From the NCBI GenBank assembly GCA_016188775.1, contig JACPHC010000010.1:31333-95332 (forward strand): a stretch of DNA of 64,000 bases, written 5' to 3'. Of the stretch, positions 27,349 to 63,737 are shown one piece after another; the stretch's first letter is position 1; every line of letters starts with the position of its first letter. The notes beneath the pieces were generated by a model. The model searched no databases and was not told the origin of the DNA. It saw only the letters and a program-made list of their open reading frames with translations. A program made the position numbers and the translations under genes. The stretch comes from Parcubacteria group bacterium (GTDB taxonomy: Bacteria; Patescibacteriota; Minisyncoccia; JACPHC01).

Positions 27349-28791
27349 TTATGTTGATTTTGGGATTAGGTTTTCCGCAACTTTCCTGCCAAGATATGAT
27401 AGCATTTTTCCTTCCTCTTCAAAACTTGTAGCGTCTGCCCAGATTAAATTCGCAATTTTTTGTCCCACCACGACTTCCCACGGTTTTGCGCTACCTATTA
27501 TGCCCATTAGATCATTTCGTACTTCTTTAATATCGTAATTTTTTCTATTGTACCCATCTTCTTTAAATCCGTTCATTACGAAAAAATGCGCATGTTGTGA
27601 ATTTGCTTTAAGCCAAGTTTCAATTCGTTGTTTTAATTCATCCCAAGTAACACTTAACGCCTCCAGAACATCATCAGAGAGCAAAAGATTTTCAGCGTTT
27701 CTACAAGATAATTTCATTCTGACTATCGGCAATAAATCGTCAATTGTTTCCTCGCCATCATCCCTATCTCTCAAAGAGTATCCTTTGGCGTTATCGTAAA
27801 CGGTCTGAACAATCTTTTGCGTCTCTTGTTCAAAGTCATTTATGTTACTAACACTATCAACCGAACAAGGGTATATCTTGATTTTGCCGCCGGCTGACCG
27901 GACAGCTTGTTGCCAAATTCGTTCGTCGTCTTCACCCTCAACTAATAAAATTGGAGCTTCATTAAAGAAATTTGATAGTGGATGCGCTCCAAACACCGGC
28001 AAAACTTTTTTATAAACTTCCGAGATAACTTTAAAATCTAATTCTTTTTGGTCATATACCATAAATGCCAAATGTGTATCGGCGTAGGATTCTAAGGCTC
28101 CCAAAATGGCGGTGCTATGAGTAGCAATTACTACTTGAAAGTTATTTTCAGCAACCAATCCTTTCAAGAAGTGCATCAACCGTACCTGTAAATCTGGGTG
28201 CAAATGCACGTCCGGCTCATCAAGAAATAAGATATTTCCTTTATCCGCCAAACATTCTTTACCAAAGATCAGGCACTCAATTCCCAAAGAAATAAGCTCA
28301 CTTTCGCCACTACTAATTGCGTTCGCGTCTAATTTATTCGTTGTTCCTTTTCGATATATCTCAAATGTCGTTTCGTGTCTTTTTATTTCGATATTGTCCA
28401 GCAAAGAGTTAATTTTATTGACGTAGATATCAAAGGTATAATCATTTTGTTGTCTTTTCTCTTTTTCAATTTCTCTCAAAACCAAGGTCTCAAGTTTACG
28501 ATATTGAGCAACGCTTTGCTGCCTAAATCCTGTTGCCTGATTTCGTCTTCTTTGGCCCGAAAGCCAATTTATATCATTTGTCAGACTTTGTTCAACCCCA
28601 GCCTCATAAATTAGCGCACCGCCTCTTTCCGGTGTGATATATTTCGTTTTGTCATAAGTTCCAGTTTGTGAGGAAAGACCTTGCTCAACCAGCCGAAGCA
28701 TTGTGCTCTTACCAGAGCCGTTCTTACCCAAAACGATATTTATTTTGTTTATGTTTTTTAGCGTATAACCGCTAACATTTGAAATATCCAT
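27349..28791 (-). CDS. OLD-family (overcoming lysogenization defect) nuclease: ABC-type ATPase + Toprim
   Basis: Walker A GKNGSGKST; Walker B/H-loop ILFLDEPDVHLHP; C-terminal Toprim-like LLVEGEDDERI … RDRDDGEE. Confidence 0.65.
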   Translation of the reverse strand: MDISNVSGYTLKNINKINIVLGKNGSGKSTMLRLVEQGLSSQTGTYDKTKYITPERGGALIYEAGVEQSLTNDINWLSGQRRRNQATGFRQQSVAQYRKLETLVLREIEKEKRQQNDYTFDIYVNKINSLLDNIEIKRHETTFEIYRKGTTNKLDANAISSGESELISLGIECLIFGKECLADKGNILFLDEPDVHLHPDLQVRLMHFLKGLVAENNFQVVIATHSTAILGALESYADTHLAFMVYDQKELDFKVISEVYKKVLPVFGAHPLSNFFNEAPILLVEGEDDERIWQQAVRSAGGKIKIYPCSVDSVSNINDFEQETQKIVQTVYDNAKGYSLRDRDDGEETIDDLLPIVRMKLSCRNAENLLLSDDVLEALSVTWDELKQRIETWLKANSQHAHFFVMNGFKEDGYNRKNYDIKEVRNDLMGIIGSAKPWEVVVGQKIANLIWADATSFEEEGKMLSYLGRKVAENLIPKST

Positions 28792-28793
28792 AG

Positions 28794-29249
28794 TTATTTA
28801 ATAGCTTTAAGAATCTTATCAGTAACGATTTTGCTTTCAGACTTTATCTGATGCTCCCAAAATCGCAATACGATCCAACCATTTTTTCGCAGATAAGTCG
28901 TAGTTTTTCTGTCTCGTTTGCGATTGTTTTCTATCTTTTCCCGCCAAAAATCGTTCTTTAGCAAATGCTTCCAGCGTGGGCAATACCAACCGTGCCAGAA
29001 ATTACTATCAAGAAAAATACATACCTTATCTTTTTGAAAAACTATATCTGGTTTTCCCTTGATTGACACAACATTCGCTTGGAATTTTTTGTGAGTAGCT
29101 TTCCCCAAAGAAACTATGAATTCTCGCTCGAATTTTGTGTCTCTGGAACGGATTTTTGCCATTAATTCCGACCGCTTTTTTGTCGGGAGTAAGTCGTCGC
29201 TCCGTTCTTTTTTGAAGTTTCTATTTAGATAGTTTTTCGTCTTTTTCAT
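28794..29249 (-). CDS. vsr: very short patch repair endonuclease
   Basis: DTKFEREF…DIVFQKDKVCIFLDSNFWHGW: Vsr signature. Confidence 0.85.
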   Translation of the reverse strand: MKKTKNYLNRNFKKERSDDLLPTKKRSELMAKIRSRDTKFEREFIVSLGKATHKKFQANVVSIKGKPDIVFQKDKVCIFLDSNFWHGWYCPRWKHLLKNDFWREKIENNRKRDRKTTTYLRKNGWIVLRFWEHQIKSESKIVTDKILKAIK

Positions 29250-30286
29250 AGAAGTCCAGCGTCAAAAATATCGGAAGCTTTGACGCCGGACTTAACGAGG
29301 GAAAATTTATCGTTCAAGAGTTTTTTCCACTGCTTCAAGCGATCACTTTCCAATTTTTCGCTTCTCCAATAGTAAGCGATGGTTTTGGCGTCCATCTCCT
29401 TGATTTTTCTTTCAATCGCTTTCGCTCTAACTTGCAAGCGATAAGCCAGTTGTGGCACTACGACATTTTTGCCTTTCACTTTTAATTTAATTTGACCGCC
29501 AGCCGTGAACAAATCTCGCAAGTTTGCGGATACGGCGTTGTATTCGGCGATAAGATAGGCGGCCGCACGCTCAAACTTTGTCGAGCTGTTACCAAACATT
29601 TCAGGAAACAGAATCATCGCTTCAACCACGAAATTTTCTTTTTCTTTGTCGCTCAAACCTCTGAAAGGCTTAATGATAGGACTAACCGCTTTTCCGTCTC
29701 CGTCTTGATCTATCCACCACAATTCCTCACCCTCTTTTAGTTGTGAGCGATAATAATCCTTGATTTTTTGAATTGGGTTAGTGTCATTCCGTAGCGTGTC
29801 ATAATCAATTCCAATCTTATCGAAAATTGATTTACCTGAAGGCAAATCCATGTTTATTCGATAGCGGGGAGAATGGGTAACGCTAATTTCTGGCAGACAT
29901 TCTTGGTAGAGTCGGTAGCGAACATCCAACTCACCGCCGAATTTTCCAAATACGATATAAATTCTTTCAACATCTTCAATACGTGAAGATTCAAGAACGC
30001 TGTTTCCGGTTGATGTCCAATGATCGTTCGCCGTCATTTTAACTTCAACGCCAAAGTATTTGTTGGCGATGATGTCTGGAAAAGCGTGCGTTCCCGTTTG
30101 TTTAACTGTTCCTTCGAAAGTCGTGCCTTTCGCCGCTTCACGAATTTGCTCAAAAACTATCGTTTCAAAATAAGTCGGCGAGATATTTTTCTTGCCACTC
30201 AAAAAGACCAGCATTAACCCCCTTGATTTTTCAAGCAAGGCGATAAAGTCTTTTTCTTTGGCGTTGGGTTTCGCGACGTAAATCAT
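29246..30286 (-). CDS. type II restriction endonuclease candidate (PD-(D/E)xK)
   Basis: FPDIIANKYFGVEVKM contains PD…(E)VK; flanked by dcm upstream and vsr downstream with 4-bp overlaps. Confidence 0.5.
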   Translation of the reverse strand: MIYVAKPNAKEKDFIALLEKSRGLMLVFLSGKKNISPTYFETIVFEQIREAAKGTTFEGTVKQTGTHAFPDIIANKYFGVEVKMTANDHWTSTGNSVLESSRIEDVERIYIVFGKFGGELDVRYRLYQECLPEISVTHSPRYRINMDLPSGKSIFDKIGIDYDTLRNDTNPIQKIKDYYRSQLKEGEELWWIDQDGDGKAVSPIIKPFRGLSDKEKENFVVEAMILFPEMFGNSSTKFERAAAYLIAEYNAVSANLRDLFTAGGQIKLKVKGKNVVVPQLAYRLQVRAKAIERKIKEMDAKTIAYYWRSEKLESDRLKQWKKLLNDKFSLVKSGVKASDIFDAGLL

Positions 30287-30288
30287 AG

Positions 30289-31260
30289 TTATTTCAAATT
30301 TTTATCTAAAAACTTTTCAATCGCCGTGGCGACATGCCAAGCTAAAACAGGCGGCACGGCGTTGCCAATCTGCTTATAAGCCGAGGAAGTGGACGGATAA
30401 AACACAAAATCGTCTGGAAAAGATTGAATCCGTGCCGCCTCTCTCGCCGACAATCTCCTTTTTCCGTTCCAATGATACTCTATGTTTCCGTGGTGTTCCG
30501 TTCGCATTGTTGGCCCCGGCTTATCCGCCGAGACGACCGAATTCCCTTGCCCGTTATTCTTTTTTGCCTTTGACCAGTAGTGATTGGCGATATTCCCTTC
30601 CTCCGCTTTCTCTAAATCGCCAATTGCTTGTTTTAAGCTAACCCAGCTTTTTTCGTCCAAAATCGGTTTTGGATGTTCAAAAGGAGGAAGTTTGTCTTTT
30701 CTTGTTCCAACAATAATAACTCTCTCTCGTGTTTGCGGCACTCCGTAATCAGCGGCCGTGAGTAATTTATAAACGACATGGTATCCCAATTTTTCAAAAT
30801 CCTTAATAATCGTTTGTATCGCTTCACCGCCGTTCATTGTGAGAAGTCCTCGGACATTTTCAGCGACAAATAAAACAGGTTTAGTTCTCTTGATAACTTC
30901 CGCCATGCTTTGATAAAGCAATCCTCGTTTACTATTAAATCCTTTTCTCTTTCCGGCATGGCTAAAATCTTGACAAGGAAAGCCGCCAAGCACTATATCC
31001 ACTTTTTGCGGGATTGGTTTTTCAAAAAAGCCCGAATTGTGTTTGCCGTCAAGAATTTTTCCGATATCGCCGCAAACTATATCGTGCTTAAAGTATTTTC
31101 TAAAGGTGGCACAGGCGGCCTCGTCAATATCGTTCGCCCAAGCAATCTCAAAGTTTCTTTTCGCGTATTTTTTGCCTAAAAATTCAAAATCGCCGACGAA
31201 GCCAAGATCGAGGCCACCGCAGCCCGCAAAAAGTGAAATTATGGAAAATTGTTTCTTCAT
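30289..31260 (-). CDS. dcm: DNA (cytosine-5)-methyltransferase
   Basis: Motif I FAGCGGLDLGF; motif IV GFPCQDFS; motif VI ENVRGL. Confidence 0.9.
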   Translation of the reverse strand: MKKQFSIISLFAGCGGLDLGFVGDFEFLGKKYAKRNFEIAWANDIDEAACATFRKYFKHDIVCGDIGKILDGKHNSGFFEKPIPQKVDIVLGGFPCQDFSHAGKRKGFNSKRGLLYQSMAEVIKRTKPVLFVAENVRGLLTMNGGEAIQTIIKDFEKLGYHVVYKLLTAADYGVPQTRERVIIVGTRKDKLPPFEHPKPILDEKSWVSLKQAIGDLEKAEEGNIANHYWSKAKKNNGQGNSVVSADKPGPTMRTEHHGNIEYHWNGKRRLSAREAARIQSFPDDFVFYPSTSSAYKQIGNAVPPVLAWHVATAIEKFLDKNLK

Positions 31261-59271: not shown

Positions 59272-60756
59272 ATGACAAGCTGTTGCGAAGAACCACAATT
59301 TAACAAGGAGGGCGGAGAAGTGGAAAAAATGGACGTTGACAAACATGAAAAGCCGGCAATCGCGCAAGAGCTTTGGTTTCAAGAAGACGAAAAAGAGCTT
59401 GTCGCAAAACACAGCATTGGCGCAACCGTAAGAGCCGGTGACAGAACCGCGAAAACCGCCGACCTCAAGGGCGGATATCAGGAAGGCGGATTTGTTAACT
59501 TGAAAATTCAAAAAAATGACGGCAGTTTTGATCCCCTAGAGACAAGAGTGATAGTCTACTCCGTTGTGAAAAAGATGTTGGAAGAAATTGAGCCGGAAGA
59601 TTTAGAAGGTACGCCATTGCTCCAAAAAACCAAAGCAGATCTCATTGAAAAATTAAAACGGCTTTACGGAAGAGATTTTACCGACAACGATGTTGTTACG
59701 ATTGTGCGATTTGAATACGCGGATAACTTAAAAGAGGCCGGTGATTTAATCAGGGTAAAAACCTTGACTTACGCTCATGAGCCGAAAGAAAACCCAAAAA
59801 ACATGGACATCCCTTCGTATACCATTCCGCTCATAGAGCATGACTATCCTGCCAAAACGCCGGTAATGTGGAATGCGGCATACCGAAAATTCGGAATTGA
59901 TGCTGGAAATATTATGCTGGTCGGCGATTCGCAGAGCGCTGGCCACATATTGGATGTGTTCCGCAAAGACGCGAAATACAGAGGCGGCGGGGCTGGCGTT
60001 GGCTTTAAAAATGAAGTTATTACTTACCTTGACGAACTTGAACCGCTAGCAAAAGAGATTGGCGCCGTGAACTTTATCATGAAAACGCCGGAAGGAAAGC
60101 TCAAGGGTTTTAATACTGACGGAATAGGCTATGCGCAGAGTTTGGAAGAAGTATTCAAGCAGAGACAAGAAGAATTGCGGGGCAAAAAAGCAGTTGTTTT
60201 GGGCGCTGGCGGAGCCGGCAACGCGGTCGCCTTCGCTCTTGCAGAAAAAGGCATGAGGGTTGTGATTCTCAATAGAACTGTCGCGAAAGCCCGCGATTTA
60301 GCGGATAAGATAAATAGATACTTCAAGAAAATGAGAATAAATGAGACGTTGAGATTCGGCGGTGAAGAATTGATTGCCGCAGAAATAAGAGATGCCGATG
60401 CAGTAATTAATGTTTCAACAAAAGGCTCGGCCGGAGAACTGGAAAAGTATTCAGCTTTAGCTCCGGCTGTATTGCCGGCAAGCCAAGAAAACATCCAAGA
60501 AAATCTCGATCGGACAAAAGAGCTGTTGCGTGTCATACCCCAAGATGCTATTATCAGTGATATTGTGCTGGGCAAAGAAGCTACTCCATTACTAAAATCC
60601 GCCAAAGCTGCCGGATTTGAAACTCTTGATGGCATTCCAATGGTAATCAATCAAGGAGTGGAAGCGTTTTGGCTGCTCTATGACAAAGAGCTTCAATCAA
60701 AAAACATTACCAAAGAACAAGTTGCCGAAGTTATGAAACGAGCCGCAAGCTCTTAA
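59272..60756 (+). CDS. aroE: shikimate dehydrogenase-family protein with ~180-aa N-terminal extension of unknown function
   Basis: C-terminal ~300 aa: …MWNAAYRKFGIDA…NTDGIGYAQSL…GKKAVVLGAGGAGNAVAFALAEKG…NRTVAKARDLA. Confidence 0.6.
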   Translation: MTSCCEEPQFNKEGGEVEKMDVDKHEKPAIAQELWFQEDEKELVAKHSIGATVRAGDRTAKTADLKGGYQEGGFVNLKIQKNDGSFDPLETRVIVYSVVKKMLEEIEPEDLEGTPLLQKTKADLIEKLKRLYGRDFTDNDVVTIVRFEYADNLKEAGDLIRVKTLTYAHEPKENPKNMDIPSYTIPLIEHDYPAKTPVMWNAAYRKFGIDAGNIMLVGDSQSAGHILDVFRKDAKYRGGGAGVGFKNEVITYLDELEPLAKEIGAVNFIMKTPEGKLKGFNTDGIGYAQSLEEVFKQRQEELRGKKAVVLGAGGAGNAVAFALAEKGMRVVILNRTVAKARDLADKINRYFKKMRINETLRFGGEELIAAEIRDADAVINVSTKGSAGELEKYSALAPAVLPASQENIQENLDRTKELLRVIPQDAIISDIVLGKEATPLLKSAKAAGFETLDGIPMVINQGVEAFWLLYDKELQSKNITKEQVAEVMKRAASS

Positions 60757-61306: not shown

Positions 61307-61350
61307 TTTCACTACAATCAACTCACGATCGTGAGTTGATTGTAGTGAAA
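61307..61350. repeat. perfect palindrome, family C copy 2 (TTCACTACAAT-CAA-CTCACGATCGTGAG-TTG-ATTGTAGTGAA)
   Basis: Same outer and core sequence as 6821-6866 with the internal triplet swapped and compensated. Confidence 0.8.
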
Positions 61351-61441
61351 TAAATGAAATAGTGGAATAAAATAAAGCAAATTAATATTTGGGTCATGAT
61401 AAATTTTGATGTGGATAAGTAATATGGTATAATAATTATCT

Positions 61442-61756
61442 ATGGGAAAAATCAATTTAAAAGAATTAATCATTATTTTACTTTTAACTTCGTTTATTCT
61501 TTTTGTCGGCGTAGCCATTGGCTTGTCTGTTGGTTGGATCCAGGGCGATGCGATAGGATTGAAAGAAGGAATAGCTAAAGGTTTTGAACAGGGAAAATTG
61601 GAAGGCCAGGCGATTTTGCGCGCCGAGTTAAAGGCCGAGGCGGAAAAAGCGGCGGCCGAAGCGGCTAATCCTTTTAAAGAAACAACCGTTAATCCTTTTG
61701 AAAAAGCTATTACTAATCCTTTTGAAAATATCAAATTAAATCCCTTTGACCGGTAG
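61442..61756 (+). CDS. small membrane-anchored protein with 4x NPF(E/K/D) C-terminal repeats
   Basis: N-terminal TM helix; Ala/Glu-rich helix; NPFKE, NPFEK, NPFEN, NPFD repeats. Confidence 0.45.
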   Translation: MGKINLKELIIILLLTSFILFVGVAIGLSVGWIQGDAIGLKEGIAKGFEQGKLEGQAILRAELKAEAEKAAAEAANPFKETTVNPFEKAITNPFENIKLNPFDR

Positions 61757-61790
61757 GTCTGTTGCGTAATGGTTAGCAAAATTAATTGCT

Positions 61791-63737
61791 ATGAACGAGT
61801 TTAAAAAATATTTTTTCGTCTTTTTTTTAATTTTCGGGGTTTTATTTTTTTTGGGTGTTTTCACACCTGATTTTTTTGTCTTGGCTTCCTCTCCTTTTGA
61901 TATTACTTATCCGATTTCCGAGCTGTCTAGTTGCGCCACTCAAGACGAGTGTCGGGTTTATTGCGATAATTTGGCTAATAAAGACGTTTGTTTCGCTTTT
62001 GCTCAAAAGCACGGTTTTGTTTCCAAAGACGACGCGGAAAAGATTAAAAATTTGCCTTTGGTCGGTCCGGGCGGCTGTCAGGGCGAGAATCAGTGCCGAG
62101 AATTTTGCGGCAAATCGGAAAATCAAAATGAATGCTTTAATTTTGCCAAGACAAACGGCTTGATTTCTCAGGATGAAATTCGGCGTTTTGAAAAATTTAA
62201 CAAAATTAAAGGGCCGGCTGGCTGCCGCGGTTTTGAAGAATGCCATCAAGCTTGCGGCGATCCCCGGAATGCTCGGGCTTGTTTGGAAATTTCCAGAAAA
62301 GAAGGACTGATTGAAGAAAAAGAGTTCGGACTTTTAGAAGATGTTTTGGAAAAAGGCGGCCCGGGGGGGTGTTTGGGTCCGGAAGAGTGTCAGATCTATT
62401 GCCAAGATTCAAATCATCTCGCCGAATGCGTTAATTTTGCCAAAGAACATCATTTTATATCCGAAGCAGAAGCGGCCAAAATTCAGGCTTTGCCTCAAAT
62501 CGGTCCGGGCGGTTGTCAAGGGGAGGTTTGCCGAACTTATTGCCAAGTTCCGGCTCATCAGACGGAATGTATAAATTTTGCCGTGGAAAATGGATTTATG
62601 TCTGAAGAAGAAGCTCTCCATGCGAGAAAAGCCATGGAAGCGATGCGGGCCGGCGGACCCGGAGGATGTTCGGGCCCGGATGAATGCCGAGTTTATTGCG
62701 AAAATCCGGACAATTTTGAAGCATGCGCTGGATTTGGAGAAAAAAATGGTTTGGTAAACAAAGAAGACATTAGGCGCGGTCGGGAATTTTCAAGAACTAT
62801 TCGAGAGAAAGGCGGCCCCGGCGGTTGCCATAAGCCTGAAGAATGCCGAGTTTATTGCGAAAATCTGGATCACGGAGATGAATGTTTTGAGTTTGGAAAG
62901 AAACAGGGGCTTATTCGCGAAGAAGATATTAAAAATTTTGAACGCGGAAAAGAGATCCGGAAAAAAGTAATGGAAACCGGCGGCCCCGGCGGATGCAAAT
63001 CCGATAATGAGTGCCGCTCTTATTGCCAAGATTCTTCTCGTGCCGAAGAGTGTCTCGCTTTCGCGGTTGAGCATGGCGGAATTCCTCCCGAAGACGCCAA
63101 AATGATGCTCGAAAATTTTGTCCGTGAAACTCATCGGCCGGAATTCGGTCCTCCGTCGAGAGATTTTGAAAAATTTGAGCAGGAAAAATTTAGAAGATTT
63201 GATGAATTTCGAGGATTAGAACGTCAATTTCGACAAGGTCCGGCGACTCAATTTCAAGGCGGTCCGGGCGGTTGTTTGAGTCCGGAAGAATGCATCAAAT
63301 TTTGTTCCGATCCGGCCAATCGCGATACTTGCGCTCATTTTGGTCCGCCTTCCGGAGGTCCGCCGTCAGGAGAAATATTTAAACAAGTTCCTTCCGGTTC
63401 TGAATCCGAATTTAGAAATATTGAGCCGTTTATACTGCCCAAAAATACGCCTTATCCGCGAATGATGCCGCCAACCGAGGTCGCTTCTCCTTTTTCCCCG
63501 GATTTAATAAATCCTCAATATCCGCAATACGCGCCTCGGCAATTTGGCCCCGGCGGTTGCGCTTCAGAGGCTGAATGCAAAGCTTACTGTTCGGATCCGG
63601 CGCGCGCCACTGAATGCGGAATTTATGTTCCGCCTTCGATAACTCCAGAGTTAAAAAATTCTTCCTCGCCTCAAAGCGGTTTTCTAAGATTTTTATCCGC
63701 GATGTTAGGCGTTATTTTGCCCGGATTTAGATATTAA
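61791..63737 (+). CDS. secreted/membrane-anchored cysteine-rich modular repeat protein (~10 modules GPGGC-x4-EC-x2-YC-x7-EC-x2-FA…G[LF]I…EE)
   Basis: N-terminal signal/TM (FFVFFLIFGVLFFLGVF); ~48-aa modules with 4 Cys each; Pro-rich C-terminal region and a hydrophobic C-terminus (FLRFLSAMLGVILPGF). Confidence 0.6.
   Translation: MNEFKKYFFVFFLIFGVLFFLGVFTPDFFVLASSPFDITYPISELSSCATQDECRVYCDNLANKDVCFAFAQKHGFVSKDDAEKIKNLPLVGPGGCQGENQCREFCGKSENQNECFNFAKTNGLISQDEIRRFEKFNKIKGPAGCRGFEECHQACGDPRNARACLEISRKEGLIEEKEFGLLEDVLEKGGPGGCLGPEECQIYCQDSNHLAECVNFAKEHHFISEAEAAKIQALPQIGPGGCQGEVCRTYCQVPAHQTECINFAVENGFMSEEEALHARKAMEAMRAGGPGGCSGPDECRVYCENPDNFEACAGFGEKNGLVNKEDIRRGREFSRTIREKGGPGGCHKPEECRVYCENLDHGDECFEFGKKQGLIREEDIKNFERGKEIRKKVMETGGPGGCKSDNECRSYCQDSSRAEECLAFAVEHGGIPPEDAKMMLENFVRETHRPEFGPPSRDFEKFEQEKFRRFDEFRGLERQFRQGPATQFQGGPGGCLSPEECIKFCSDPANRDTCAHFGPPSGGPPSGEIFKQVPSGSESEFRNIEPFILPKNTPYPRMMPPTEVASPFSPDLINPQYPQYAPRQFGPGGCASEAECKAYCSDPARATECGIYVPPSITPELKNSSSPQSGFLRFLSAMLGVILPGFRY

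Follow-up and report, generated by a model that had tools for sequence, protein, structure and literature searches.

A conserved Parcubacteria gene pair predicted to encode an exported cysteine-repeat array and an NPF-tailed membrane partner

General features of the gene pair

The window analysed here, a 64-kb stretch (64,000 nt) of contig JACPHC010000010.1 from a Parcubacteria group bacterium, carries near its end two genes whose products may form a cell-envelope complex specific to Parcubacteria. The first gene (61442 to 61756, + strand) was identified from its open reading frame (ORF) and from the orthologues found upstream of the second gene elsewhere. It encodes a 104-amino-acid (aa) bitopic protein, hereafter the partner, with a transmembrane (TM) helix, a Gly/Ala/Glu-rich helix and four NPF motifs. 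The second gene (61791 to 63737, + strand), recognized from its ORF, its Cys positions and a search for relatives, encodes a 648-aa Cys-repeat protein predicted to be exported, hereafter the array protein. The original prediction had described a two-gene module made of an NPF-repeat membrane protein and a 648-aa protein with about ten four-Cys modules; both ORFs lie on the + strand at exactly the coordinates it gave, and the 40 Cys and the four NPF motifs were recovered. The array protein is 100% identical to the NCBI metagenome-assembled genome (MAG) entry HYV52_03750, annotated as 'hypothetical protein' from Parcubacteria group bacterium.

All 40 Cys of the array protein fall within ten 4-Cys units, which have the spacing C-x5-C-x3-C-x8-C in nine cases and C-x4-C-x3-C-x8-C in module 5. 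The first two gaps are those originally proposed (x4/5 and x3), whereas the last one, given as x7/8, is always x8 in this protein. The 4-Cys pattern is absent elsewhere in the six-frame translation of the window, and its presence in the array ORF is therefore not due to chance. The protein starts with a putative Sec-type signal peptide (aa 1-32, 61791 to 61886, + strand), read from the sequence as a basic n-region and a hydrophobic core followed by a predicted VLA/SS cleavage site, where V30-L31-A32 satisfies the -3/-1 rule. Neither a twin-Arg motif nor a lipobox Cys was seen in it, and the conservation of the family begins at SPFDI, immediately past the signal peptide.

Eight full modules of about 48 aa come next (units 1-8, aa ~42-450, 61914 to 63140, + strand). 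As delimited by the Cys positions and the structure predictions, each of them has a [GPGG]C-x5(4)-C-x3-C-x8-C pattern, an F-A-x-x-x-G-[LF] segment and a third helix; module 1 opens with ELSSC and the other full modules with GP[GA]GC. They are followed by a long conserved linker helix (aa 457-482, 63159 to 63236, + strand), which has the family consensus motif RFEEFRxLExQFR and is predicted with a pLDDT (predicted local distance difference test score) of ~91. Units 9 and 10 are truncated 4-Cys mini-modules set in the Pro-rich C-terminal part, and the segment described earlier as FAxxNG[LF] after each module is found, as F-A-x-x-x-G-[LF], in eight of the ten units. Mini-module 9 (aa 489-516, GGPGGCLSPEECIKFCSDPANRDTC, 63255 to 63338, + strand) is predicted to form a helix-turn-helix without helix 3 (helices 498-506 and 508-516, pLDDT ~77-83), while mini-module 10 (aa 584-611, FGPGGCASEAECKAYCSDPARATEC, 63540 to 63623, + strand), assigned from its Cys positions and the whole-protein model, lies within the disordered Pro-rich region. 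Both model and composition indicate that this Pro-rich spacer (63339 to 63674, + strand) is largely disordered, with 16.5% Pro over aa 491-648.

The protein ends with a putative amphipathic helix (aa 629-648, GFLRFLSAMLGVILPGFRY, 63675 to 63734, + strand; predicted helix 631-642, low pLDDT), which is found in most family members, usually with R/K/Y at its end. This tail had been described as hydrophobic, but in the family it is amphipathic, 13-16 aa long, often with D, E or R, and too short for a TM anchor. No LPXTG motif of sortase-anchored surface proteins occurs near the C-terminus. A hidden Markov model (HMM) of the tail matched no other protein among 963 ORFs sampled from the local flanks, and its use as a general sorting signal was rejected on this basis. 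The single significant match, located just downstream of a shortened array ORF (locus L017), is probably the C-terminal remainder of the array gene after a frameshift. The array is acidic, the family having a median isoelectric point (pI) of 4.95.

Search for known domains

No match to Pfam or NCBIfam was obtained for the array protein at E<=1, and a sequence search of the PDB gave none either. When 113 modules were scanned one by one against Pfam, no recurrent family appeared, at most 4 of the 113 matching any one family. The families among these weak matches include Euplotes pheromone, defensins and scorpion toxin, which are small cystine-rich peptides; the matches were rejected as chance-level and driven by the shared CX3C spacing. 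A Fer4_RLI match in one of the 113 modules (E=0.1) is likewise at chance level. For the profile built from the 113 modules, the sole match was to the Ku70 SAP motif and was not significant (E=0.13); SAP/HeH-like DNA binding was rejected on this ground and because the acidic character of the array argues against nucleic-acid binding.

Neither the whole protein nor the single modules matched the Sel1 or tetratricopeptide repeat (TPR) families at E<=1, and no EH or EF-hand family was detected in them with Pfam. The array protein contains none of the spacings typical of Fe-S proteins, rubredoxin, ferredoxin or c-type haem (CxxC pairs, CxxCxxCxxxCP, CxxCH). Kazal domains (PF00050/PF07648) are equally missing from the window protein, which has no Pfam match at E<=1. 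The idea that the module itself is a Kazal domain was rejected, since the Kazal matches of relatives are separate canonical domains at the C-terminus (for example aa 600-692 of P0016). No specific account of the GPGGC module or of Cys-repeat proteins in Parcubacteria came up in literature searches. Both proteins are already public as 'hypothetical', and no domain model, structure or paper was found for the module or for its pairing with the NPF protein. With no match in Pfam, NCBIfam or PDB and no recurrent family among the 113 modules, the earlier statement that this is not a known bacterial domain stands: the module is a domain family without prior description, of which the repeat unit, the predicted architecture and the conserved partner are all new.

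Predicted structure

A single module (49-aa construct, 113-module alignment) was predicted by AlphaFold2 with a pLDDT of 92.6 as three helices (residues 10-17, 20-32 and 38-45). In this model, C1 sits in the GPGG loop, C2 and C3 are separated by one turn of helix 1, and helix 2 carries C4. The model of the whole protein has a pLDDT >90 over aa ~40-450 and a predicted template modelling score (pTM) of 0.60. This value was reached despite about one fifth of the chain being predicted as disordered, which suggests that the modules pack into one defined body, the eight of them probably forming a continuous all-helical unit and not beads on a string.

A Foldseek search with the whole model returned nothing below E 0.5. 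There was no superposition on solved TPR, Sel1-like repeat (SLR), ARM or HEAT solenoids, and HcpB, HcpC and COA7 were not among the matches listed. By this fold search, neither the module nor the array has a solved structural analogue.

Cysteine residues of the modules

In the family as a whole, 1085 of 1092 modules keep all four Cys, 997 have the spacing C-x5(4)-C-x3-C-x8-C, and no module is missing a pair. Such retention makes pairwise Cys loss uninformative for deducing the disulfide pairing. An even Cys count was obtained for 223 of 239 family proteins, and in the same set the number of Cys lying outside the modules is likewise nearly always even. In some relatives the exported chain also carries Kazal domains, which need three disulfides. 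Because of the even counts and of these domains, the module Cys most likely form disulfides, one of the two options first raised, rather than bind metal. The helix geometry of the module model makes a C2-C4 staple joining helices 1 and 2 the most plausible arrangement, with a second bond involving C1. Moreover, the 22-aa mini-modules are predicted by the whole-protein model to fold alone within disordered sequence, which would need covalent or metal cross-links.

The module could alternatively be a Cys4 metal site, most plausibly for zinc, and the array would then serve in extracytoplasmic metal binding, buffering or metal-dependent structure. The invariance of the four Cys, no module having lost a pair, agrees with this, and C1 in the loop, C2 and C3 on helix 1 and C4 on helix 2 could converge on one metal. 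A conserved His/Asn lies five residues past C3, and disulfide formation is less obvious in the anoxic settings where many Parcubacteria probably live. However, a Sec signal without twin-Arg makes a pre-assembled Fe-S cofactor unlikely, the Cys outside the modules are also even in number, and the Kazal domains on the same exported chain depend on disulfides. The spacing is also unlike that of rubredoxin, ferredoxin and zinc-ribbon knuckles, and no metal-binding family was detected with Pfam. A metal site thus seems distinctly unlikely.

The NPF partner protein

The single TM helix of the partner (aa 9-27, LIIILLLTSFILFVGVAIG, 61466 to 61522, + strand) has a hydropathy of 2.89 over 19 aa. The C-terminal NPF array (aa 76-102, NPFkettvNPFekaitNPFeniklNPF, 61667 to 61747, + strand) was defined from its conservation in 42 orthologues, in which N76, P77, N100, P101 and F102 are invariant, while F78, N84, P85, N92 and P93 are at least 90% conserved. 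The four motifs end the partner at its extreme C-terminus, which corresponds to the NPF-motif half of the NPF-EH systems; the Pfam NPF model (Rabosyn-5) matched the partner below threshold (E=0.029, 15.3 bits vs 27.6). The partner may be a signal anchor with an N-in/C-out orientation, as it begins with a short basic stretch and a hydrophobic core like those of such anchors. By the positive-inside rule, the flanking charge of the TM helix (K+R 1.5 vs 1.57) does not fix the orientation. The juxtamembrane Gly-x3-Gly-rich helix (aa 24-73) has weak NCBIfam matches to FliH (E 2e-4, far below the cut-off), and some NPF-protein orthologues carry the JGI annotation FliH or FliL. This likeness looks compositional, due to the GxxxG repeats of FliH, and not like homology.

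At five loci examined by exact-protein look-up, an ORF of 87-107 aa with a TM helix and the invariant NPF..NP..TNPF..NPF tail lies directly upstream of the array gene. The flanking genes differ among these loci, being type IV pilus genes, SecDF, glycosyltransferases, or RNase H and MurJ. More broadly, among the 71 loci where the array gene is complete, 60 have an NPF ORF directly upstream and on the same strand, at a distance of -46 to +217 nt; about 5 of the 11 other loci lie at contig ends. The profile of 42 NPF proteins found 193 relatives. The 120 listed are 75-156 aa long, nearly all below 125, and those with an organism name belong to Patescibacteria. In a reverse check of three divergent NPF genes on long contigs, each was followed by an array gene, one of which is broken by assembly frameshifts. 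At locus L087 (5286-7300), the array gene shifts among three reading frames and contains many stops, although the upstream NPF gene is intact; this is probably a long-read indel error and not a pseudogene. In MAG CAYIEG01 (loci L014 and L064) the pair occurs as two paralogues, both complete with an NPF gene; one pair has a 9-module array with 4 NPF motifs, the other a 5-module array with 5 NP[FY]-type motifs. The synteny in 60 of 71 loci, the reverse check and the paralogous pairs that keep their own NPF gene support the NPF protein as a genuine partner of the array protein, as the original prediction had suggested.

Distribution and evolution of the array

A word-indexed search returned more than 1,197 relatives of the array protein, most of those listed being 37-49% identical to it; the matches with a named organism were all from Parcubacteria or an unclassified bacterial MAG. 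The module-profile HMM, run against 1.84 billion representative proteins, found 1,900 at E<=1e-3 and 1,127 at E<=1e-30, these ~1,900 module-bearing representatives being clusters at 50% identity. Among the 150 matches listed, the module occurs in 6-13 tandem copies, and it is therefore essentially confined to the array family. A scan of species-representative genomes with the block of modules 7-8 (alignment A4) gave 78 loci, all in Patescibacteria. The named lineages number at least 11 (Azam-, Zambryski-, Wildermuth-, Sung-, Colwell-, Ryan-, Harrison-, Nealson-, Staskawicz-, Lloyd- and Yanofskybacteria), with 30-63% tblastn identity to the query block across them. The window protein has the features that define the family, namely a signal peptide, an SPFDIxFPIxELGxC start, at least four tandem modules and an upstream NPF gene.

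Of the first 120 members of the family, 92 have nine modules. Between species, modules that occupy the same position share an identity of 0.44, compared with 0.33 for modules at different positions between proteins and 0.35 for those within one protein. This higher likeness of same-position modules indicates that the array is old, with individually constrained modules, and that it lacks the concerted evolution and copy-number churn usual in adhesin repeats. The suggestion that the protein serves in adhesion or cell-cell attachment was weakened by these data: with its largely fixed module number, position-specific identity (0.44 vs 0.33) and lack of homogenisation within proteins, the array looks more like a conserved structural or scaffold element than like an adhesin under fast evolution.

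A role as an adhesin by which the episymbiont binds its host cell, with the array as stalk and the N-terminal tip or C-terminal accessory domains as binding heads, would nevertheless agree with export of the protein and with its layout, which recalls Gram-positive surface proteins (signal peptide, repeats, Pro-rich spacer and hydrophobic C-terminal tail with a basic end). Some relatives also carry Laminin-G lectin fusions, type IV pilus genes adjoin the pair at one locus (L003), pilin-like genes follow it at five, and Cys-rich extracellular proteins of the candidate phyla radiation (CPR) have been proposed to act in attachment (PMC4736985). Yet the array is conserved, at the identities given above, across many candidate phyla with presumably different hosts, its repeats are neither homogenised nor expanded, and the module number is largely fixed. 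The tail, without LPXTG, is too short and amphipathic for a TM anchor, the lectin and Kazal heads are found only in minorities, and the pilus linkage in few loci only. Host attachment is thus an improbable function.

Accessory domains and neighbouring genes

The variable part of the family is the C-terminal region, which consists of the Pro-rich spacer alone, one to three Kazal domains, a Laminin_G_3 domain, or an extension of ~900 aa rich in Cys, Pro and Thr. The Laminin_G_3 (ConA-like lectin) domain follows the array in P0141, P0206 and P0225. P0141 has in addition an N-terminal region of ~190 aa ahead of the first module. In P0122 (1555 aa), the ~900-aa extension bears a second type of Cys/Pro/Thr-rich repeat (CP..C...C motifs) with ~70-90 further Cys and no Pfam match. 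The Sec signal peptide and the Kazal and Laminin-G domains fused in relatives place the array protein, by prediction, outside the cytoplasm, in line with the location first proposed.

True Kazal serine-protease-inhibitor domains in a subset of relatives raise the question of a multi-headed protease inhibitor or protective decoy, Kazal-extended in some lineages, in which the small disulfide-rich modules would behave as tandem inhibitor domains and protect the envelope against proteases of the host or the environment. Inhibitors typically consist of small units stabilised by cystines, and a gene for a trypsin-like protein of ~390 aa is found directly downstream of the array gene (60-140 nt), or ~1 kb downstream past a pilin-like gene, in 10 loci (L013, L030, L032, L035, L042 and others). 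SecD/SecF follow this gene in most of the 10 loci. However, its Trypsin_2 match is below threshold (25.3 bits vs 27.6), and it never occurs together with a Kazal fusion (7 loci), on which ground the trypsin-like protein was rejected as what the Kazal domains act on. Helical modules predicted to pack into a single body also differ from independent domains with exposed reactive loops, and the 113 modules showed no similarity to inhibitor families in Pfam, which makes an inhibitor role very improbable.

Other recurrent neighbours are a PD-(D/E)XK nuclease (19 loci), SecD/SecF (16 loci), a sigma-70/HARE-HTH protein (12 loci) and a pilin-like protein (5 loci). These were rejected as functional partners, as they form, with the trypsin-like gene, a synteny block that is limited to a subset of loci and includes unrelated DNA-repair genes. 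The least probable reading, a Sec-linked helper of folding or secretion outside the cytoplasm (either a helical-repeat chaperone of the holdase type or a relay that exchanges thiols and disulfides through CX3C pairs), draws on the SecD/SecF genes that follow the pair on the same strand in those 16 loci, on the common binding of unfolded peptides by helical-repeat proteins and on the disulfide reductase activity of COA7, a disulfide-bridged SLR protein (PMC8892353), but the linkage is missing at most loci, the window included, and is part of a wider block with PD-(D/E)XK nuclease, HhH-GPD DNA-repair and sigma-factor-like genes, while the protein has no thioredoxin-like CXXC motif and its forty structural Cys exceed the needs of a catalytic relay.

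Transcription signals and gene context

Upstream of the partner gene, in the gap that separates it from an RNase H gene, a terminator-like scan found a perfect hairpin (61307 to 61350, strand not assigned) with a 20-bp stem (TTTCACTACAATCAACTCAC / GTGAGTTGATTGTAGTGAAA) and a 4-nt GATC loop. Its terminator-like score is on the minus strand, and it is likely a terminator or insulator parting the RNase H gene from the gene pair. An extended -10 promoter-like site (TTGATG-16-TG-TATAAT, 61406 to 61433, + strand; 10/12 consensus matches, TG present) ends 8 nt 5' of the ATG of the NPF gene. As no Shine-Dalgarno sequence is evident between this site and the start codon (61406-61441), the NPF-gene mRNA may be leaderless or near-leaderless. 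Together, the hairpin and the promoter-like site suggest that the pair is its own transcription unit with its own promoter.

The window is otherwise an ordinary stretch of Parcubacteria genome, with genes for RelA/SpoT, TopA, a TRCF-like helicase, class II ribonucleotide reductase, a ClpB-like ATPase, EF-G and ComEC. A 494-aa shikimate-dehydrogenase-like protein (59272-60756) has its Shikimate_dh_N and Shikimate_DH domains beginning only at aa ~195, after an N-terminal extension of ~190 aa without Pfam match. A 479-aa protein encoded at 27349-28788 (- strand) has AAA_21/AAA_15 (AbiEii/OLD-like ATPase) domains and, with the co-oriented ORFs after it (28794-31260), is possibly part of a defence or toxin-antitoxin system. 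Past the window end, ~450 nt downstream of the array gene (L001, 2869-4284), lies a gene for a highly charged Glu/Lys-rich protein of 471 aa with no Pfam match; a MurJ gene comes next.

Comparison with known systems

The array protein most likely belongs among the disulfide-stapled extracytoplasmic helical-repeat proteins. Helicobacter HcpB/HcpC and human COA7 are exported or compartmentalised all-helical tandem repeats with a disulfide staple in each repeat, and their solenoid surface binds peptides or proteins (PMC8892353). The array shares with these disulfide-bridged SLR solenoids its tandem, all-helical and stapled repeats; in contrast to them, it has neither a Sel1/TPR HMM match nor an SLR/TPR superposition. 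CS-alpha/alpha toxins and CHCH proteins (twin-CX3C/twin-CX9C) resemble the module in their short helix-turn-helix held by Cys, with CX3C on helix 1. Their hairpins have symmetric CXnC pairs, one per helix, whereas the module has a single Cys on helix 2 and one Cys in the N-terminal GPGG loop, together with a third helix, a tandem arrangement and no HMM match.

The layout of RECK comprises a signal peptide, N-terminal tandem Cys-rich helical repeats, Kazal domains and a hydrophobic C-terminal end. The Kazal-bearing relatives resemble it in this overall layout, by analogy only: RECK is eukaryotic and GPI (glycosylphosphatidylinositol)-anchored, its repeats have 6 Cys and no detectable sequence similarity, and the window protein itself has no Kazal domain. 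The partner recalls the eukaryotic NPF-EH systems in its tandem NPF tripeptides, acidic flanks and flexible tail, but its Pfam NPF match is sub-threshold, the array has no EH/EF-hand, and the context is bacterial and probably extracytoplasmic. In Peregrinibacteria, large Cys-rich extracellular proteins with signal peptides (mean 1,655 aa), weakly like Myxococcus Cys-rich repeats and integrin FG-GAP, have been proposed to give rigidity or attachment (PMC4736985). These are much larger than the array protein, and neither a GPGGC module nor an NPF partner has been described for them (PMC4736985).

Proposed function

Taken together, these features suggest, with a probability of roughly one half, that the two genes form an operon encoding a Parcubacteria-specific cell-envelope complex, in which a disulfide-stapled helical-repeat scaffold is held at the membrane by its NPF partner. 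The sequence features, the conserved pairing of the genes, the restriction to one taxon, the lack of known homologues and a confident helical model come directly from the data; from these we infer disulfides over metal, an N-in/C-out partner, docking of the NPF tail on the array and a scaffold function. The array protein would be exported by Sec and its signal peptide removed. Each module of ~48 aa would fold as a three-helix unit locked by its four invariant Cys, most likely through two disulfides within the module, of which one would join helices 1 and 2, and the eight modules would stack as a rigid, acidic helical-repeat body. The long helix would follow this body, and then the Pro-rich spacer with the two 4-Cys mini-modules and the short amphipathic C-terminal helix. 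The 104-aa partner would sit in the cytoplasmic membrane and display its C-terminal (NPF)x4 tail outside the cell. There the tail might dock as an extended peptide on the repeat body, as peptides do on TPR or SLR solenoids, and so tether the array at the cell surface; this docking would be the most economical mechanism. The array would most likely act as a stable envelope scaffold or protein-binding platform, to which a Kazal inhibitor or a Laminin-G lectin is added as accessory domain in some lineages.

Several points weigh against this proposal. Its scaffold function is a default reading of the architecture and not of a functional link. The charge bias leaves the orientation of the partner unfixed, and the NPF tail could thus be cytoplasmic. 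The correlation between the numbers of NPF motifs and of modules (Spearman rho 0.47, p=2e-4, n=58), which speaks for the partnership, is uncorrected for phylogeny. Anoxic groundwater is the probable habitat of many Parcubacteria, and the Cys invariance would equally suit a Cys4 zinc site. Some support exists for each of the other explanations weighed above (zinc array, host adhesin, protease inhibitor, Sec-linked folding helper), but the data favour none of them.

A more specific version of the envelope scaffold can be considered, although we regard it as unlikely. The pair would then be a hitherto unrecognised bacterial peptide-repeat/helical-repeat recognition system, in which the extracytoplasmic (NPF)n tail threads a new class of cystine-stapled three-helix solenoid with about one NPF per two modules. 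The result would be an envelope strut of defined length, resistant to proteases and redox changes, that places the Kazal and Laminin-G domains at a fixed distance from the membrane. If true, the fold class would be new among proteins, and the structure would define the envelope of a lineage of ultra-small episymbiotic bacteria.

Conclusions

The gene pair is widespread in Parcubacteria, restricted to them and strongly conserved for an exported protein, and can be regarded as lineage-defining. Its module is a target for a new Pfam/InterPro family. As a compact and probably very stable 48-aa unit stapled by cystines, it is also a target for structure determination and of possible interest in protein engineering, while the invariant NPF tail offers a directly testable hypothesis of protein-peptide interaction. 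Parcubacteria are a very large, almost wholly uncultivated group of ultra-small bacteria, the envelope and cell interactions of which are largely unknown. The array provides an entry point, for example as an antibody or tagging target for cryo-electron tomography, to how CPR bacteria build or decorate their surface.

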